A stretch of 64,000 nucleotides of DNA, taken from contig JBIKWJ010000001.1 in assembly GCA_044356325.1 (NCBI GenBank), positions 56,305-120,304 on the forward strand, in the 5' to 3' direction. Below are positions 1 to 59,829 of the stretch, in pieces. Position numbers and translations under genes: made by a program. The stretch's first letter is position 1. Every line of letters begins with the position of its first letter. The notes below the pieces were generated by a model that saw only the letters and a list, made by a program, of their open reading frames with translations, searched no databases and was not told where the DNA came from. This DNA comes from Minisyncoccia bacterium. GTDB lineage: Bacteria > Patescibacteriota > Minisyncoccia > SW-4-49-11.

Positions 1-1128
1 ACGGTCATCCTCCATTGAGTCACCCAATTCACTACGTCGCCTTTCATACGGGGTATGATCAGCAATGTAGATCCCGTCTGCTCGATTCGGCTTAACTCGA
101 ATCACAAAACGATCTCGACATGATCCCCGATGGCCGGGAACTTCGAGCGAATCAATCGCTGTATCAGGAGACACATCTCCAATACCGCACCAGAGGAAGC
201 CCTCATATGCGATCTCAGGAACACTCCCATCATTGGGGGTATCAAGTGATATAAGTCGATAACCACTTCCTGATAGAGCGTAACGATTCGCTGCATCCAG
301 CGCATTCATATTCTTCTGCCCTTGTTTGATTCGAACCACATCGCTATTTTCAGCGAAGCAGAAAATCGAACCAATTGAATCAGGAAAAGGAATTATTGCT
401 GGTATAGCGAATGTACCCACTTTTTCCTCGGGGATTGGGTGGGACACAATAATCTTGAACACAACTTCTTCAAGATAGTGCTTGAACTCTTCCATCACCG
501 TAGCGGTGCGGAAGAGTGTGGGCTCATCTCCCTCGGGATCGTACTCGCGATTGAGGTCGTTCGTATGAACCAGAAGCGGCGGCCGACGACCCGAATGAAT
601 ATGAGTCATCTGGGACAACTTTTCGGAGTCGTCAGTAAGAGCGGCGGTCAAAAAACCGATCGCTTCAAACCATGCCCCTGCCGTTGTTTGGCAGTCACAG
701 CCACCCTTGTACTCGAGGTACAACTTCGGCTCACCGCTGAGTTTACTGTTGACCTTCGAAGCGTTCATAAAGAGATCGCGGTCCCGCTCATAGTCGTCAC
801 CGACATAGAGATAGAAGGTTGGGCCTGACTCGTCATCATGGACGAGAATCATCTTCTGTGGAATCACGATTTCGGTTACAGCAGCTGTGTCATTCCAATG
901 ACCATCTGGCATAGTACGCTGTACGCGGCAAAACCAGAGTTTGAAATCCTGACCCTCAATCCGTGAAACTTTACGAAACTTTTGTTCTCCACTCCCATAT
1001 TCATGAAATTCCACAGTGACACCGGGAACTTGCCAATGGCGTTTCTCAAGCTCGCGAACAATTTGCTCGCAAACAGAATCAAATGGGAATTGAAGAGTAT
1101 TGGGATAAAGAAATTGCATCGTTTGCAT
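1..1128 (-). CDS. Hypothetical protein, 5' part only (runs off the window start). GC content about 52% against about 30% for the rest of the window, so probably foreign DNA.
   Basis: I translated the minus strand by hand from the ATG at 1126-1128 (MQTMQFLYPNTLQFPFDSVCEQIVRELEKRHWQ...) and found more than 370 codons with no stop, continuing past position 1. The ORF track omits it only because there is no stop inside the window. The plus-strand ORF 439..828 is antisense to it. No family recognised. Confidence 0.5.
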   Translation of the reverse strand, partial: MQTMQFLYPNTLQFPFDSVCEQIVRELEKRHWQVPGVTVEFHEYGSGEQKFRKVSRIEGQDFKLWFCRVQRTMPDGHWNDTAAVTEIVIPQKMILVHDDESGPTFYLYVGDDYERDRDLFMNASKVNSKLSGEPKLYLEYKGGCDCQTTAGAWFEAIGFLTAALTDDSEKLSQMTHIHSGRRPPLLVHTNDLNREYDPEGDEPTLFRTATVMEEFKHYLEEVVFKIIVSHPIPEEKVGTFAIPAIIPFPDSIGSIFCFAENSDVVRIKQGQKNMNALDAANRYALSGSGYRLISLDTPNDGSVPEIAYEGFLWCGIGDVSPDTAIDSLEVPGHRGSCRDRFVIRVKPNRADGIYIADHTPYERRRSELGDSMEDDR

Positions 1129-1200
1129 GGGACTGCTCCTTTGTAATTGGTTTTGTGAAGGTGTAATCCTCAGGCAAAATAGCCTAAAGAATGCAGTACT

Positions 1201-1229
1201 TATATACCATATATTTCTATTTTTGTCAA
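1201..1229 (-). promoter_or_regulatory. Sigma70-like promoter for the GC-rich gene.
   Basis: On the minus strand: TTGACA (complement of plus tgtcaa at 1224-1229), a 17 nt spacer, then TATATA (plus 1201-1206). Shares the motif ctattgacaaa with two other promoters in the window. Confidence 0.4.
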
Positions 1230-1253
1230 TAGCTATTATCAAGTATTACTAAT

Positions 1254-1296
1254 TGCGGAGAGAAAGGGATTAGAACTCGTCGCAAATGGGATTTGC
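1254..1296 (-). repeat. Partial duplicate of the tRNA-Ser 3' end (about 25 nt) fused to the hairpin gcaaatgggatttgc. Looks like an att-site remnant.
   Basis: Plus-strand tgcggagagaaagggattagaactc is close to the 3' end of the intact tRNA-Ser at 1521-1545 (tgcggagagagagagatttgaactc). It is followed by gtc and then the perfect inverted repeat gcaaat-ggg-atttgc. Confidence 0.5.
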
Positions 1297-1520
1297 TCCT
1301 TGAAACCACCTCAGTTTCCTCAATACCCCTACAACCCCATCTCGGACACCCACGGTTTCCGACATTCGGAGCAAGCACCTCACTGCCTTCCTCTCTAGGG
1401 GTATTGATTACATCCTCCACGGGAAACTACCGTTTCCCGACCCCTTCCCTGACTTCAAATCTCTCCCAACTGCTACACATAATATAAAAAATTGGGGATA
1501 TACCCCATTTTCTATATTTG

Positions 1521-1609
1521 CGGAGAGAGAGAGATTTGAACTCTCGATAGGTTTGACCCTATACTGCGTTTCGAATGCAGCGCAATAAACCGGACTATGC
1601 GATCTCTCC
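1521..1609 (-). tRNA. tRNA-Ser (anticodon CGA), type II with a long variable arm.
   Basis: Reverse complement is GGAGAGATCGCATAGTCCGGTTTATTGCGCTGCATTCGAAACGCAG...GAGAGTTCAAATCTCTCTCTCTCCG. The 7 bp acceptor stem pairs GGAGAGA with TCTCTCC, the anticodon loop is TTCGAAA, and the T-loop is TTCAAAT. It is followed on the minus strand by the weak hairpin GGGGtatatCCCC and a T-run. Confidence 0.8.
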
Positions 1610-1689: not shown

Positions 1690-1899
1690 ATGTCATTCCA
1701 AGCCTATCTTGACAATATTTATACCAAAACAGGTAAAACTCCTGAAGATTTTCGTAAATTAGCCAAAACCAAGGGATTATTTACCCCAGAGACCAAGGCT
1801 ACGGCCATTATTAATTGGTTACATGAAGATTTTGATTTGGGGCGTGGTCATGCTATGGCTATTGTAGCTACTTTTAAACAATTTCATAAAGAACAATAA
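1690..1899 (+). CDS. DUF4287 family small protein.
   Basis: A 69 aa ORF, MSFQAYLDNIYTKTGKTPEDFRKLAKTKGL..., matching my recollection of the DUF4287 N-terminal signature. It sits in an AT-rich context with a -10-like tataaa upstream. Confidence 0.5.
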   Translation: MSFQAYLDNIYTKTGKTPEDFRKLAKTKGLFTPETKATAIINWLHEDFDLGRGHAMAIVATFKQFHKEQ

Positions 1900-4226: not shown

Positions 4227-4817
4227 TTAATATTGTAAGAATACTCCGATAAGAATCAAAACAAATCCCACACCCAAATTAACATAAGGTTGTTTGGTAT
4301 CAATTTTTGCACCTAATTGATGTAATTTATCTTTTATACTATTTATAATTTCATGTTTTTCGGTGATTGCAATGAGCCAGAATATAAGGATGGGAATATG
4401 AAAAGCAATATTGAGTCCGGTATTAGCTATCACTCTATAAATTGTCTTATCGAATAAAATATTAATTTGAATAGCTAAGAATACATATTCTACTAGAGCT
4501 GGAAAATCTATAAAAGGAGCTATAATTCCCATTAAAAAAGGTAATGTCCCATAATATTTGGGATAAGTTTTAACTTTATCTAATTTAGGTTTTTTAGGAA
4601 TTATGGAATACAATAGCAAGATAACTCCTATCAGTATCAAGACATAACTATTGATAAGCTTAATATGATTTTTTATAGCATCAACTTCCTCTTTCAAACC
4701 CCAAATAATAACTCCAGAAATTATAAAATGAATCAAGAATAACCCCACCAAAAACCAAAACATATTTTTGGCAGATTTAGAATGTGCCAAATAATATAAA
4801 CTTAATATAACTGTCAT
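4227..4817 (-). CDS. Polytopic membrane protein, unknown function.
   Basis: 196 aa with multiple hydrophobic helices. Confidence 0.4.
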   Translation of the reverse strand: MTVILSLYYLAHSKSAKNMFWFLVGLFLIHFIISGVIIWGLKEEVDAIKNHIKLINSYVLILIGVILLLYSIIPKKPKLDKVKTYPKYYGTLPFLMGIIAPFIDFPALVEYVFLAIQINILFDKTIYRVIANTGLNIAFHIPILIFWLIAITEKHEIINSIKDKLHQLGAKIDTKQPYVNLGVGFVLILIGVFLQY

Positions 4818-4830
4818 ATATTTTTATATA

Positions 4831-6213
4831 TTAGAATTCTCCAAAAGTTTCACTATTGAGATAGGCTCCAATATCCTCAATATCTATTCTCAGTTGTTCC
4901 ATAGTATCTCGATGTCTGATAGTAACAGTTCCCTCAGATAAGGTCTCATAATCTACTGTTACACACCAAGGAGTACCAATTTCATCTTGCCTTCGATATC
5001 TCTTTCCTATTGATCCGGCCATATCCATATCCGCAAGTATCCCCTTTTTACGAAGATTCATATAGATTTCTTTTGCATTTTCAGCGAGGCCATCTTTTTT
5101 CATCAATGGGAGTATAGCAATTTTATATGGAGCAATATGATAAGGGAATTTGAGTACAATACGAGACTCATCACTTCCTGTAACTTTCTCCTCATTATAA
5201 AATTCAAACAGAGAAGATAAGAGAAGTCTATTTACTCCTAGAGAAGTCTCAATCACATAAGGGAAATATTGCTCATTGGTCTCGGGATCGCGATATCTCA
5301 AATCCTTACCACTAAATTTACTATGTTGTCGGGTATCATAGTCAGTACGATTATGAAGACCTTCTAGTTCTTTGAATCCCACAGCTCCAAATTCATAATC
5401 TATATCCCAAGCATCTTTTGCATAAAATACGAGTTTTTCATGTTGGCGAAATTTGATATGCTCAGTATTATACCCCAGATACTCTGTATAGAATTTGTAG
5501 CGATAATCTTTCCAGAATTCATACCATTCATCTTCCTCTCCTGGTTTTACAAAAAATTGTAAATCTATTTGTTCAAATTCACGCGTACGGAAAATATATT
5601 GTTTTACGGTAATCTCATTACGAAAAGCCTTACCAAGTTGCGCAATACCAAATGGTAATTTGCGTCGGCTCGTCTCCTGTACTAATTTCCAATTAACATA
5701 AATATTCTGACAAGCCTCCCCTTTTAGATAAGCAACAGTAGAGTCATCGACAGTTGCTCCAAGATGCGTTTGTACAAGGAGATTGAATTGTTTTACTTTT
5801 GTGAGGGGATTACCATCGGGAGAGAGAATTTTATTGTCCTCAATAACCTTATCTGTCTCTTCTGGAGAAAGACTATCTGCATTATCCATAATACCAGCAT
5901 CCTCAATCAAGTGGTCAGCCCGATAGCGTTTATGAGTAACCGTATCCTCTACCAAAAGATCCGCAAATCCTCCAATATGACCACTTGCTTCCCAAACTTT
6001 AGGGTGAAGGAATATAGCTCCTTCAATTTCTACCACATCATCGCGATAAGTCACCATATAATCTCGCCAGGCTTGCACGAGATTGTCTTTTAATAATTTT
6101 CCAAGAGGTCCAAAATCATAAACCGAAGAATATCCCCCATAAATCTCAGATGAGGGGAATATAAATCCATTGCGATGAGCATATTTTACAATTGTATCCA
6201 GTTTTGTTGACAT
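4831..6213 (-). CDS. glyQS: Glycyl-tRNA synthetase (alpha2 dimeric type).
   Basis: 460 aa. The N-terminus ...GFIFPSSEIYGGYSSVYDFGPLG... is typical of class II GlyRS. Confidence 0.9.
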   Translation of the reverse strand: MSTKLDTIVKYAHRNGFIFPSSEIYGGYSSVYDFGPLGKLLKDNLVQAWRDYMVTYRDDVVEIEGAIFLHPKVWEASGHIGGFADLLVEDTVTHKRYRADHLIEDAGIMDNADSLSPEETDKVIEDNKILSPDGNPLTKVKQFNLLVQTHLGATVDDSTVAYLKGEACQNIYVNWKLVQETSRRKLPFGIAQLGKAFRNEITVKQYIFRTREFEQIDLQFFVKPGEEDEWYEFWKDYRYKFYTEYLGYNTEHIKFRQHEKLVFYAKDAWDIDYEFGAVGFKELEGLHNRTDYDTRQHSKFSGKDLRYRDPETNEQYFPYVIETSLGVNRLLLSSLFEFYNEEKVTGSDESRIVLKFPYHIAPYKIAILPLMKKDGLAENAKEIYMNLRKKGILADMDMAGSIGKRYRRQDEIGTPWCVTVDYETLSEGTVTIRHRDTMEQLRIDIEDIGAYLNSETFGEF

Positions 6214-14040: not shown

Positions 14041-14460
14041 TGAATAAGGTGAGAAAAATCCTAGGTAAACTAGGAGTTATGTAGGGGCGACCTTGTAGTC
14101 GCCTGCACTATTATGTCCTCCTTTCTACATACGGTAGACAAGTGGAGGGGGTGGCCGTCAGGCCAGAGGTGGACTAAGCTAAATTCCCCTCTTGAGGGGT
14201 ACCGTCGTTAGATGGTGGGGTGGAATATTTTTGTAACTTGAGTTTGTGCCCCCCTTCGCCTGCCTGCGGTAGGCAGGGAGGGGGAAGCCTGAAAGACGGG
14301 GGTGGATAGAATCAAAACTAAAGTATATTTGATAATCATATTGAATTTGAGAATATAGGTTTTTAATTATCCACACCCACCGCAAGCGGTTCCCCCTCTC
14401 CAAAGAGGGACATAAGACAGGCAACTGAAAGGTCACCCCTACGAAATGCATAATTTACAA
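14041..14460. repeat. GC-rich interspersed repeat, copy A (composite and degenerate MITE-like element).
   Basis: GC-rich insert in AT-rich DNA. It shares modules with the other copies: gtaggggcgacctt, ggtggccgtcaggccagaggtgga, cctgcctgcggtaggcaggga, ttcccctcttgaggggtaccgtcg and aaggtcacccctac. A hairpin ccccgtaatttacgggg plus T-run follows at 14476-14505. Confidence 0.6.
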
Positions 14461-14503
14461 TTGCCAACTACACCCCACCCCGTAATTTACGGGGTGTTTT
14501 TCT

Positions 14504-52597: not shown

Positions 52598-53009
52598 TAA
52601 GATGAGATACATCGTAGACAAAATGAGATTTGTGTAGGGGTGACCTTACAGTCGCCCGCAAGTCCTCCTCCGTCCCCTCCTATACTTTAGTTTGGGAGGG
52701 GACACCTCCCCCAAGGGAGGACAATAAAACTGTCCCTCGCTGGGCGAGGGTGTCGACGAAGTCGACGGGTGTGGACTGAGCTAATTCCCCTCATTGAGGG
52801 GTGTATCATTAAAAGGCCTATATTCTAAAATATAAATTTATTTTGAACCTATCCACCCTCCCCCTACGGGTACTCCCTCCTAAGGGAGACAAAAGCTCAA
52901 GCTCAAATATATCACAGGCGACTGATAGGGTGCCCCTACATAAGAACAATAGTGGAGGGATAAACCCTCCGCTACGAAAGTATAATTTGTCTACGATCTC
53001 CTCATCTTA
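52598..53009. repeat. GC-rich MITE-like element, copy D (the best-preserved copy, with roughly 27 bp TIRs).
   Basis: Left end tgaataagatgagatacatcgtagacaaaatgagatttgtgtaggggtgacctt. The right end, reverse-complemented, is tgtataagatgaggagatcgtagacaaattatac. The element is about 55% GC in a roughly 30% GC genome. Confidence 0.7.
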
Positions 53010-53086
53010 TACAGAGTTTTGACAAATAAAAAAAGCCCCACACGAATGCAGGGTTCAAAGAGCTTTAGCTGTGAATAGCAGGCAGC

Positions 53087-55878: not shown

Positions 55879-56431
55879 TATGTAATTCTACAGTTCTATT
55901 AGCTTCTGCAAATTTGAGAATAATGTCTTTGGCCTTATATGGGTACGGCACATCATCAAAGAATAAAATTTTCTGATCCGCGCCTGCAGTTTGTACCCGC
56001 ACATCACCAAAATTCAAAATACTTGCAAAAAATCCATTTACAATAACTTCTATATCTTGTACATTACCAATATCCGCCTCGGATAGCTTACGATGAAAAA
56101 AATCAATTTGATCAATAGTAAGAACTCTTTGATTCGTCACAATATAAGCATCCAGATAATAATGTGTCCAGGTCAAAAATGCGGTATAAAAGATAAATAG
56201 AATAATAAGCATAATTACAAAATCAAATACAGTAGCTAAAAATGGCTCTTGTAATACTGGGATAGTATTAGGTAAGTATATAGATAATACAAATGTTACC
56301 AATAATAATATAGCACTGAATATATAAGGAGCAATAAGCAAAAATATAGATCTTCTAAAGACAATTTTTACAATTTCCCCTTGATGCTGACCTTTGAAAT
56401 GAAGATTTTTCCCCGTAACTCTATCAAACAT
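55793..56431 (-). CDS. Membrane protein with a bacterial PH (YdbT/bPH_2-like) domain.
   Basis: 212 aa with two N-terminal transmembrane helices followed by a PH-like domain. A C-terminal Asp/Asn/Lys-rich tail overlaps the LTD gene. Confidence 0.45.
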   Translation of the reverse strand: MFDRVTGKNLHFKGQHQGEIVKIVFRRSIFLLIAPYIFSAILLLVTFVLSIYLPNTIPVLQEPFLATVFDFVIMLIILFIFYTAFLTWTHYYLDAYIVTNQRVLTIDQIDFFHRKLSEADIGNVQDIEVIVNGFFASILNFGDVRVQTAGADQKILFFDDVPYPYKAKDIILKFAEANRTVELHNAYTYDPNKQDPNKDSNDPDNTNKSPQN

Positions 56432-59404: not shown

Positions 59405-59732
59405 GGCTTTATCATTCTCTAAATGCTTTGTTCGAATGCAGGGACTCGGTCACAAGTAATTTACCTGACGGTAAATTCTCGCTACCCCGTCTCGCCGTGT
59501 TCGCCTTGCGCATAGCACAAACTCACACATGGCTCCGACTTTCTCGCCCTGACTAAAGCCAATAAATTGGCTTTATCATTCTCTCGCTTCGCTGTTCGAA
59601 TGCAGGGACTCGGTCACAAGTAATTTACCTGACGGTAAATTCTCGCTACCCCGTCTCGCCGTGTTCGCCTTGCGCATAGCACAAACTCACACATGGCTCC
59701 GACTTTCTCGCCCTGACTAAAGCCAATAAATT
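59405..59732 (-). repeat. Two tandem copies of a 164 bp unit. Each unit contains an 18 nt duplicate of the tRNA-Gln 3' end plus a 9 bp-stem hairpin.
   Basis: Unit 1 (59405-59568) and unit 2 (59569-59732) are identical except for the 10 nt aaatgctttg versus cgcttcgctg. Each contains ttcgaatgcagggactcg, which is the tRNA-Gln 3' end. A third partial unit merges into the real tRNA. Confidence 0.7.
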
Positions 59733-59758
59733 GGCTTTATCATTCTCTCGCTTCGCTG

Positions 59759-59829
59759 TTCGAATGCAGGGACTCGAACCCCAATTGCTGGTGCCAGAAA
59801 CCAGTGTCCTACCGTTAGACGACATTCGA
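59759..59829 (-). tRNA. tRNA-Gln (anticodon CTG).
   Basis: Reverse complement is TCGAATGTCGTCTAACGGTAGGACACTGGTTTCTGGCACCAGCAATTGGGGTTCGAGTCCCTGCATTCGAA. It has the U1:A72 pair typical of tRNA-Gln, and the anticodon loop is TTCTGGC. Confidence 0.75.

Follow-up and report, generated by a model that had tools for sequence, protein, structure and literature searches.

The 64,000-nucleotide stretch of Minisyncoccia bacterium contig JBIKWJ010000001.1 analyzed here (positions 56,305 to 120,304; hereafter the window) begins inside a GC-rich gene that lies downstream of a tRNA-Ser(CGA) gene. On balance, this gene is probably a single, self-contained piece of mobile cargo occupying a strain-variable slot downstream of the tRNA, and its function can only be inferred. 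The flanking core genes are 90% identical to those of a metagenome-assembled genome labeled Candidatus Paceibacterota (L015; L numbers denote the loci that were compared). The host is therefore a Candidate Phyla Radiation (CPR)/Patescibacteria bacterium. These organisms have small genomes with many unannotated genes, and their exchange of DNA is barely understood.

The GC-rich gene and its upstream region

The following features make up this end of the window.

1 to 1128, minus strand: GC-rich gene, the putative cargo, first 376 of about 434 codons (from the open frame, GC statistics and identity to the relative P0001)
1136 to 1141, minus strand: ribosome-binding site AAGGAG, 7 nt before the ATG (read from the sequence)
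1142 to 1200, minus strand: 5' leader, its promoter-proximal part kept among related loci
1201 to 1229, minus strand: sigma-70-like promoter (read from the sequence; conserved in five related loci)
1253 to 1467, minus strand: element X, a GC-rich (51%) module (from comparison with related loci; also in L001, 204 to 327, and in L012 to L019)
1320 to 1408, minus strand: module M, an 89-nt self-folding insert in X (from a gap in the blastn alignment)
1493 to 1507, no strand assigned: short palindrome with a T-run, a terminator-like hairpin between tRNA-Ser and X
1520 to 1609, minus strand: tRNA-Ser(CGA), the anchor of the hotspot (ARAGORN and Rfam)

Bases 1 to 1128 have a GC content of 48.1% (42 to 55.5% in 200-nt windows). 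The promoter and leader (1129 to 1252) have 32.3%, the remainder of the window 33.4%, and the window as a whole averages 33.7%. A first-pass annotation, made from the sequence alone, had described a jump from about 30% to about 52% near position 1130. The step is real and is located at about 1130 to 1160, but the upper value was set above the measured mean. GC content at third codon positions (GC3) is 0.46 in the frame at 1 to 1128, against a mean of 0.221 (standard deviation [sd] 0.035, maximum 0.305; z = 6.9) for the reference set, which comprised the 45 other open reading frames (ORFs) of at least 150 amino acids in the window. The corresponding values are 0.59 against 0.44 at first positions (z = 2.5) and 0.39 against 0.32 at second positions (z = 1.6). 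Because GC3 deviates at synonymous sites, the anomaly is more than a matter of amino acid composition.

The minus-strand frame runs from an ATG at 1128 to base 1 without a stop, a length of 376 codons; the first-pass annotation had reported an uninterrupted frame of more than 370 codons from the same ATG, and the peptide that it quoted is correct. The product is 93% identical in amino acid sequence to P0001, a full-length relative of 434 residues. Directly upstream, the promoter consists of TTGACA (1229 to 1224), a 17-nt spacer and TGG-TATATA (1209 to 1201). When five related loci are aligned, the -35 box, the spacing and the TGn-TATAnn pattern are invariant and the adjoining bases vary. The promoter is AT-rich and host-like, in agreement with its earlier description as native in style. 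A consensus scanner does not list it, since the hexamer at -10 has A as its final base. Transcription is predicted to start about 7 nt downstream of 1201. The motif ctattgacaaa (CTATTGACAAA), which had been taken to recur in the window, is not above chance there: it has 3 exact copies, and 6 copies with at most one mismatch compared with 2.7±1.7 expected, a count reached by 7 of 100 shuffled sequences.

The leader sequence TACTGCATTCCTTxGGCTATTTTGCCTGAGG is common to the window, L001, L002, L016 and L017, which diverge after it. Sequence held in common with related loci ends at about 1150 to 1165, within the leader, and is cargo-specific thereafter; the promoter therefore belongs to the conserved platform and not to the cargo. 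The tRNA-Ser(CGA) gene is on the same strand as the GC-rich gene, which lies 3' of it, and this is likewise the case in L001 and L002.

A sudden change of composition at the very edge of a window could indicate a chimeric join or a contaminant at about position 1130, the scenario that the first-pass annotation had named as its own refutation, and several related metagenome contigs (L016, L017 and L018) stop near the junction. We regard such an artifact as extremely improbable. Loci L001 (JGI 3300055275), L002 (JGI 3300050208) and L003 (Logan SRR35795015), which derive from different samples and pipelines, have the same order of tRNA-Ser, X, promoter and gene, with nucleotide identities to the window of 93% over the gene and 91 to 94% over the flanks. 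A misjoin is excluded because these three independent assemblies have the same junction. In addition, L001 runs through the gene into AT-rich, host-like DNA, and the promoter, leader and ribosome-binding site lead straight into the ORF.

A single gene between direct repeats

In L001 and L003 the ORF extends 58 codons past the point that corresponds to the window edge, reaching 434 amino acids, and ends at a strong hairpin with a T-run, a terminator. GC content drops to 25 to 33% directly after the stop codon in both loci. The GC-rich patch is therefore one gene and not the rim of a larger island. The AT-rich DNA that follows encodes a Dcm-type cytosine methyltransferase and an NgoFVII-type endonuclease, which form a restriction-modification pair, and then a beta-lactamase-family protein and a DNA-alkylation-repair protein. 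No integrase or recombinase is found among the called genes of L001, L002 and L003. The first 8 kb of the window have no recombinase-like ORF; two ORFs there carry aminoacyl-tRNA synthetase motifs.

The gene in L001 is bracketed by a 63-nt direct repeat (289 to 351 and 1814 to 1876, a spacing of 1525 nt). The two copies are 86% identical overall and identical over their first 29 nt. The pair is also present in L003; the sequence of L002 stops after the first 23 nt of its distal copy. The repeat is composed of the 3' part of X (its 3' 45 to 63 nt) and adjoining AT-rich sequence. A 26-mer resembling the 3' end of tRNA-Ser, CTCTCTCCGCAAATAT, has three copies in L001.

The first-pass annotation had proposed the edge of a horizontally acquired island at tRNA-Ser, with the island itself lying outside the window and with an integrase and a distal attachment (att) repeat to be sought. 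A hotspot with acquired cargo agrees with the data from relatives and a larger GC-rich island does not: in L001 and L003 the patch consists of this gene alone, and what lies beyond the edge is about 58 codons, the terminator and the distal repeat. The att-type repeat was recovered in L001 and L003, together with sequence like the tRNA-Ser 3' end, and the integrase is missing from the called genes of L001 to L003. The gene is indeed a strong compositional outlier beside tRNA-Ser, but the suggested foreign origin has to be narrowed. Because the family is centered in CPR/Patescibacteria, the source is likely another CPR lineage, or a mobile element or phage associated with CPR bacteria, and not a distant GC-rich phylum.

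These features can be accommodated as follows. The tRNA-Ser gene, the structured element X, the sigma-70-like promoter and the leader form a platform that is host-like and conserved among relatives. The cargo placed after the leader differs by lineage; the one described here has its own ribosome-binding site and, judging from the relatives, its own terminator. In the window lineage the cargo unit measures about 1.5 kb between the 63-nt direct repeats. These repeats have the form expected of recombination at an attachment sequence of the tRNA type, the mechanism that we propose. Because no integrase is nearby, the unit may be an integrase-less islet, either mobilized in trans or left by decay. 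If the cargo is such a cassette, a copy of CAAATCCCATTTGCGACGAGTTC…CCGCAA is expected past the left edge of the window.

Variable cargo at the tRNA-Ser slot

At this site, other cargo is found in relatives whose flanking core genes are 75 to 90% identical in nucleotide sequence.

L015: AT-rich ORF of 77 amino acids after the platform
L016 (1 to 175, minus strand) and L018 (6828 to 6931): same promoter and leader, then another ORF with 49% GC (MNSYKKEAQEWLGF…)
L017: AT-rich repeats after the platform
L013: another gene, with 55% GC (4788 to 5348, minus strand), before X; X is followed by a restriction-modification system of the Dam type and by the beta-lactamase-family gene already mentioned

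The tRNA-Ser hotspot of the first-pass annotation is thus supported by other cargo in each of these relatives. No more than about 185 nt past the conserved promoter and leader, the contigs of L016, L017 and L018 come to an end; contig breaks at the junction are expected because the site is strain-variable. The locus is a repeatedly sampled example of a slot linked to a tRNA gene, in which swappable cargo follows a constant promoter platform.

Two unrelated GC-rich ORFs adjoin X in AT-rich relatives, namely those of L013 (55%) and of L016/L018 (49%), which suggests that a pool of GC-rich cargo genes uses the tRNA-Ser slot.

Distribution and probable mobility of the family

The window protein has no match at E≤1 in Pfam, NCBIfam, PHROGs or PADLOC, which is consistent with the earlier remark that the 376-residue fragment belongs to no recognizable family; a phmmer search of PDB sequences gave chance antibody matches only. 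Searches with 78 close and 97 diverse family members, and with their profiles, likewise assigned no family. Relatives of the protein are numerous. A word-indexed search retrieved 284 homologs, the best 120 of which are 48 to 93% identical, and an exhaustive profile search retrieved 619 representatives at 50% identity clustering, 302 of them at E≤1e-30. The few homologs that have names are all annotated as hypothetical proteins of Patescibacteria, Parcubacteria, Niyogibacteria or Levybacteria, all of them CPR. Judged from sequence, the family is CPR-centered, with almost all relatives in CPR bacteria. Distant relatives with 25 to 31% identity are found on megaplasmids of Bosea, Methylorubrum and Rhizobium, and the one from Bosea ANAM02 adjoins genes for topoisomerase III and for a type-IVb pilus/type IV secretion system (T4SS). 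There was no tblastn match among 50,697 deposited phage records, and one copy, 49% identical, is on a 206-kb IMG/VR contig with 53% GC (L023). About half of the close homologs have a 90-residue N-terminal extension (KHGPFAVATS…GSVTFSLEPTVW…RAGWRA) with faint KOW-like matches, which the window protein does not have. A literature search covering CPR islands, ADP-ribosyltransferases (ARTs) and GC-rich conserved genes found nothing on the family. The family lacks a Pfam model, comprises more than 600 clusters at 50% identity and has a structure that is predicted with confidence, and it merits attention: the event at this locus is of an ordinary kind, and it carries an unannotated, structurally tractable protein family.

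The gene is richer in GC than its flanks in 15 of 15 loci, with a mean excess of 0.11. The excess reaches 0.225 in a host with 27% GC and is 0.01 to 0.06 in L021, L022, L023 and L029. Since it persists in these GC-matched loci, the offset is intrinsic in part, and for the remainder it has the look of incomplete amelioration. Sharp GC spikes confined to a single gene are found in L001, L004, L005 and L006. In CPR genomes a spike of this sort can thus point to one mobile gene instead of the border of a large island, which is of practical use in annotation and binning because several contigs break exactly at the tRNA-Ser slot.

Gene neighborhoods are unrelated across 13 contexts and are often rich in defense genes. 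In L005 (7435 to 13408) a transfer-messenger RNA (tmRNA) gene is followed by a serine recombinase, a small ORF, the homolog and an OLD-family (AAA_15/AAA_21/TOPRIM) nuclease. This arrangement suggests that an element carrying the homolog has integrated at the tmRNA gene; L005 is of a different lineage from the window and is the only locus with a serine recombinase near a homolog. The neighbor in L006 is a NACHT-Cap4 nuclease, and other contexts are plain housekeeping ones (ftsW, EF-P). Up to a point 334 nt before the gene, loci L006 and L007 are unrelated; beyond that point they are 99.7% identical. A same-strand tRNA gene precedes the start of the gene by no more than 800 nt in the window (Ser-CGA, 392 nt) and in L004 (His, 155 nt), L029 (Ala, 172 nt) and L026 (Ser-GCT, 738 nt). 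For 4 or more of 13 contexts to be tRNA-adjacent, P≈1e-3 given a probability of 0.0375 per gene taken from the tRNA density of the window. In L008 (5601 to 9884) 13 nt of the 3' end of tRNA-Asn recur 4.2 kb downstream of that tRNA, where they bound an AT-rich insert (33 to 43% GC) in a genome with 56% GC; the homolog starts 117 nt after this copy. Movement of the family among CPR bacteria, with landings in unrelated neighborhoods and, far beyond chance expectation, after a tRNA gene on the same strand, would account for this pattern.

No partner gene is conserved overall. A 75-amino-acid ORF directly follows or overlaps the homolog in L010 (11512 to 11739) and in L020 (6368 to 6598), the two being 41% identical (E = 2e-17). 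It may be an occasional partner, and it is absent from the window lineage.

Acquired cargo or resident gene

Several observations speak for a gene that has not moved of late, or not as a unit of this kind. A search around the homologs in L004 to L010, L026 and L029 revealed no flanking repeats, nor copies of a tRNA 3' end in L004 to L006, L010, L026 or L029, and the distal repeat that brackets the gene in relatives lies past the window edge, where it is not visible in the window. No integrase or transposase is found beside the gene in the window lineage. In L021, L022 and L029 the gene is among housekeeping genes and has a GC content near that of the host, so parts of the family are long-resident. 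Between the window and L001 the gene has diverged to the same degree as its flanks, from which we infer that the acquisition was not recent and predates the split of these two.

Taken further, the same observations would make this a long-resident CPR gene inherited vertically, its GC content set by amino acid composition together with selection on codons or mRNA and its place beside a tRNA incidental. The CPR-centered distribution and good conservation of the family (48 to 93% identity in the best 120) suit such a history, as do the host-type promoter of the gene and its equal divergence with its flanks; in the GC-matched loci L021, L022, L023 and L029, too, the gene is 1 to 6 points richer in GC. 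We nevertheless consider vertical descent unlikely. The GC3 value is 6.9 sd above that of the window genes, the next highest of which reaches 0.305, so that the usual codon optimization is insufficient. Nor does vertical descent agree with the unrelated neighborhoods in 13 contexts, with the other cargo held in the slot by relatives at 75 to 90% nucleotide identity, with the flanking direct repeats of L001 and L003, or with the different upstream contexts of the near-identical genes of L006 and L007. Mobile cargo in a tRNA-linked slot fits these data better.

Predicted structure and function

An AlphaFold2 model of P0001, computed from a 78-sequence alignment, has a predicted local distance difference test score of 92.8 and a predicted template modeling score of 0.87. 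Two parts of the modeled protein are encoded in the window.

619 to 1128, minus strand: N-terminal alpha/beta domain, residues 1 to 170 (from the secondary structure of the model), holding the conserved R33, Y111 and Y143
1 to 618, minus strand: start of the C-terminal half, residues 171 to 376 of about 434, predicted to have a weakly ART-like fold; cut by the window edge

A Foldseek search of the PDB gave no match for the model. Fold matches of the C-terminal fragment are almost exclusively to proteins with the ART fold: Tpt1/KptA, DarT, OspC3/CopC and SopF, as well as toxins of the cholera, pertussis and diphtheria types, PARPs, RES and AcrF11. Since the ART-fold matches remain once the N-terminal domain is removed, the putative ART-like fold is in the C-terminal half. 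The model predicts a soluble, two-domain protein whose C-terminal half is weakly and remotely ART-like. The remote likeness leads to the testable hypothesis that the protein uses NAD+ on RNA, DNA or protein.

In L023 an NAD-dependent DNA ligase gene begins 9 nt after the homolog, and genes for an ADP-ribosylglycohydrolase, two RNA ligases and an HD hydrolase are within the same 17 kb. These neighbors, at one locus with its viral status taken from IMG/VR, are the sole functional association found, and they fit an enzyme that acts with NAD+ or on nucleic acid ends. We tentatively suggest that the protein could be an enzyme using NAD+ or a nucleotide to modify RNA or tRNA ends, or protein, in conflicts with phages or mobile elements; the case for this falls short of an even chance.

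The following points tell against an ART-type activity. The NAD+ site of ARTs has a triad of H-Y-E/D/Q or R-S-E, or the R-H-R-R of Tpt1, on strands β1, β2/3 and β5, for which H191, Y311 and D360 are the candidates here. Each of them shows conservation of 90% or more in the close set of 78 sequences. In a broad set of 97, conservation is 44% for H191, 64% for Y311 and 96% for D360, and E312 is variable, which leaves a canonical H-Y-E or R-S-E site undemonstrated. The polar residues with the highest conservation (R33, Y111, Y143, D360, Y404, R417 and E423) span both domains, which suggests from sequence conservation that residues of both halves may form an inter-domain site. No macrodomain or antitoxin gene is conserved as a partner, and PADLOC gave no match at E≤1. 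Neither the 78 close nor the 97 diverse members, nor their profiles, have a Pfam match to any ART-type family, and a profile search of the PDB gave chance antibody matches only. The family thus differs from the ART superfamily in showing no sequence similarity to ART Pfam families in 97 members, in a candidate β1 histidine that is not conserved family-wide, and in an extra N-terminal domain of 170 residues, to which about half of the close homologs add the 90-residue extension. The protein is not assigned to any ART family.

A more specific proposal is that the gene is a stand-alone anti-phage toxin, or an anti-defense factor, of a new type, whose ART-like domain would ADP-ribosylate a phage or host target. 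Its hotspot and islet positions and its neighbors, among them restriction-modification systems, the OLD nuclease and the NACHT-Cap4 nuclease, favor such a role, the ART-fold matches include DarT, RES and AcrF11, and on Bosea megaplasmids genes for topoisomerase III and for a type-IVb pilus/T4SS lie close to distant homologs. Even so, we judge it improbable, given that the candidate catalytic triad is not conserved family-wide, that there is neither a PADLOC match nor a conserved antitoxin or macrodomain partner, that several loci are purely housekeeping, and that sequence conservation is unusually high for a conflict gene. About as speculative is a combined scenario in which the family would be a hitherto unrecognized, NAD+-dependent class of ART/Tpt1-like enzymes, confined to CPR bacteria and their mobile elements, that act on tRNA or RNA ends, repairing or disabling them in phage conflict. 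Its single-gene units would target the 3' flank of tRNA genes and recombine at X- or Y-like elements (described below) without an adjacent integrase, and the GC excess would mark a GC-richer, phage-borne reservoir.

Comparison with known systems

tRNA-gene islets and integrase-less, cis-mobilizable elements consist of att-flanked cargo that has no recombinase of its own. The putative cargo described here resembles them in that it directly follows a same-strand tRNA gene, has direct repeats with tRNA-3'-end-like sequence around it in relatives (L001 and L003), deviates in composition (GC3 z = 6.9) and is polymorphic among relatives. It differs in that the unit is one gene (1.5 kb) with no integrase nearby, the repeat comes from the separate, tRNA-like X and not from the tRNA itself, and the promoter and leader are in the conserved platform, not in the insert.

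An integron likewise has a constant promoter platform, lineage-specific single-gene cargo and repeats at the cargo boundaries. In contrast to integrons, the boundary repeats are direct copies of X rather than imperfect palindromes of the attC type, and one cargo unit was seen per locus. The integron reading was rejected, as no integrase or attC was seen, though no dedicated search for attC or IntI was made.

Element X and modules M and Y

X is a module of about 120 nt that measures 215 nt in the window. The 3' end of X, …TCTCTCCGCAA, nearly reproduces the 3' end of tRNA-Ser, and the 5' end of X is complementary to this sequence. A 22-mer from X is present in eight further contigs labeled Paceibacteria or 'Saccharibacteria', and in six of these the fetched DNA includes a gene for tRNA-Ser(CGA or GGA). 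X folds better than shuffled sequences (z = -3.4 and -4.1) and shows no covariation, with compensatory changes in 0 of 32 pairs. It is not a tRNA, a tmRNA or a known RNA according to ARAGORN and Rfam. Nor is it a decayed N-terminal protein extension, since tblastn of the extension matches the ORF start only. X may be an RNA or an att-type DNA site.

Module M is missing from X in L001, L002, L015 and L016. Copies are found in L012 (7173 to 7261), L017 (341 to 429), L019 (3726 to 3763) and L014 (4410 to 4444), where they are in either orientation, at other positions in X or outside X in the opposite orientation. With a fold z-score of -5.2, M behaves like a small mobile hairpin element.

The closest precedent for X and for the related module Y is the set of tRNA-linked repeats of the Escherichia coli tyrT operon (rtT RNA), in which units downstream of the tRNA end in copies of its last nucleotides, about 20 in the tandem 164-nt units at tRNA-Gln described next. 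X and Y differ from rtT in having no Rfam RtT match and in having GC-rich, structured cores that are common to different tRNA sites (Gln and Ser) in CPR bacteria.

Elsewhere in the window, two tandem 164-nt units lie at 59431 to 59725 (minus strand), just downstream of a tRNA-Gln gene (59758 to 59829), and each unit ends in a copy of the last 20 nt or so of that tRNA. The core of these units, module Y, shares 89% identity over 62 nt with modules beside tRNA-Ser in L015 and also matches L017 and L019. It has no Rfam match. Compensatory changes in 10 of 41 predicted pairs, in an alignment of four sequences only, are good evidence that the predicted structure of Y is conserved.

Other observations

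A small ORF adjoining tRNA-Ser (1690 to 1899, plus strand) is the counterpart of a DUF4287 gene that is syntenic in L002, and it is conserved together with its flank in L002 and L015. Further GC-rich patches (49 to 50%) without convincing ORFs occur in the window at about 14050 to 14500 and 52600 to 53080. Matches to the Rfam model whalefall-1 in these patches score 28.9, 23.8 and 21.4 bits, below the gathering score of 37. The two patches may be more structured repeats or unannotated RNA genes.

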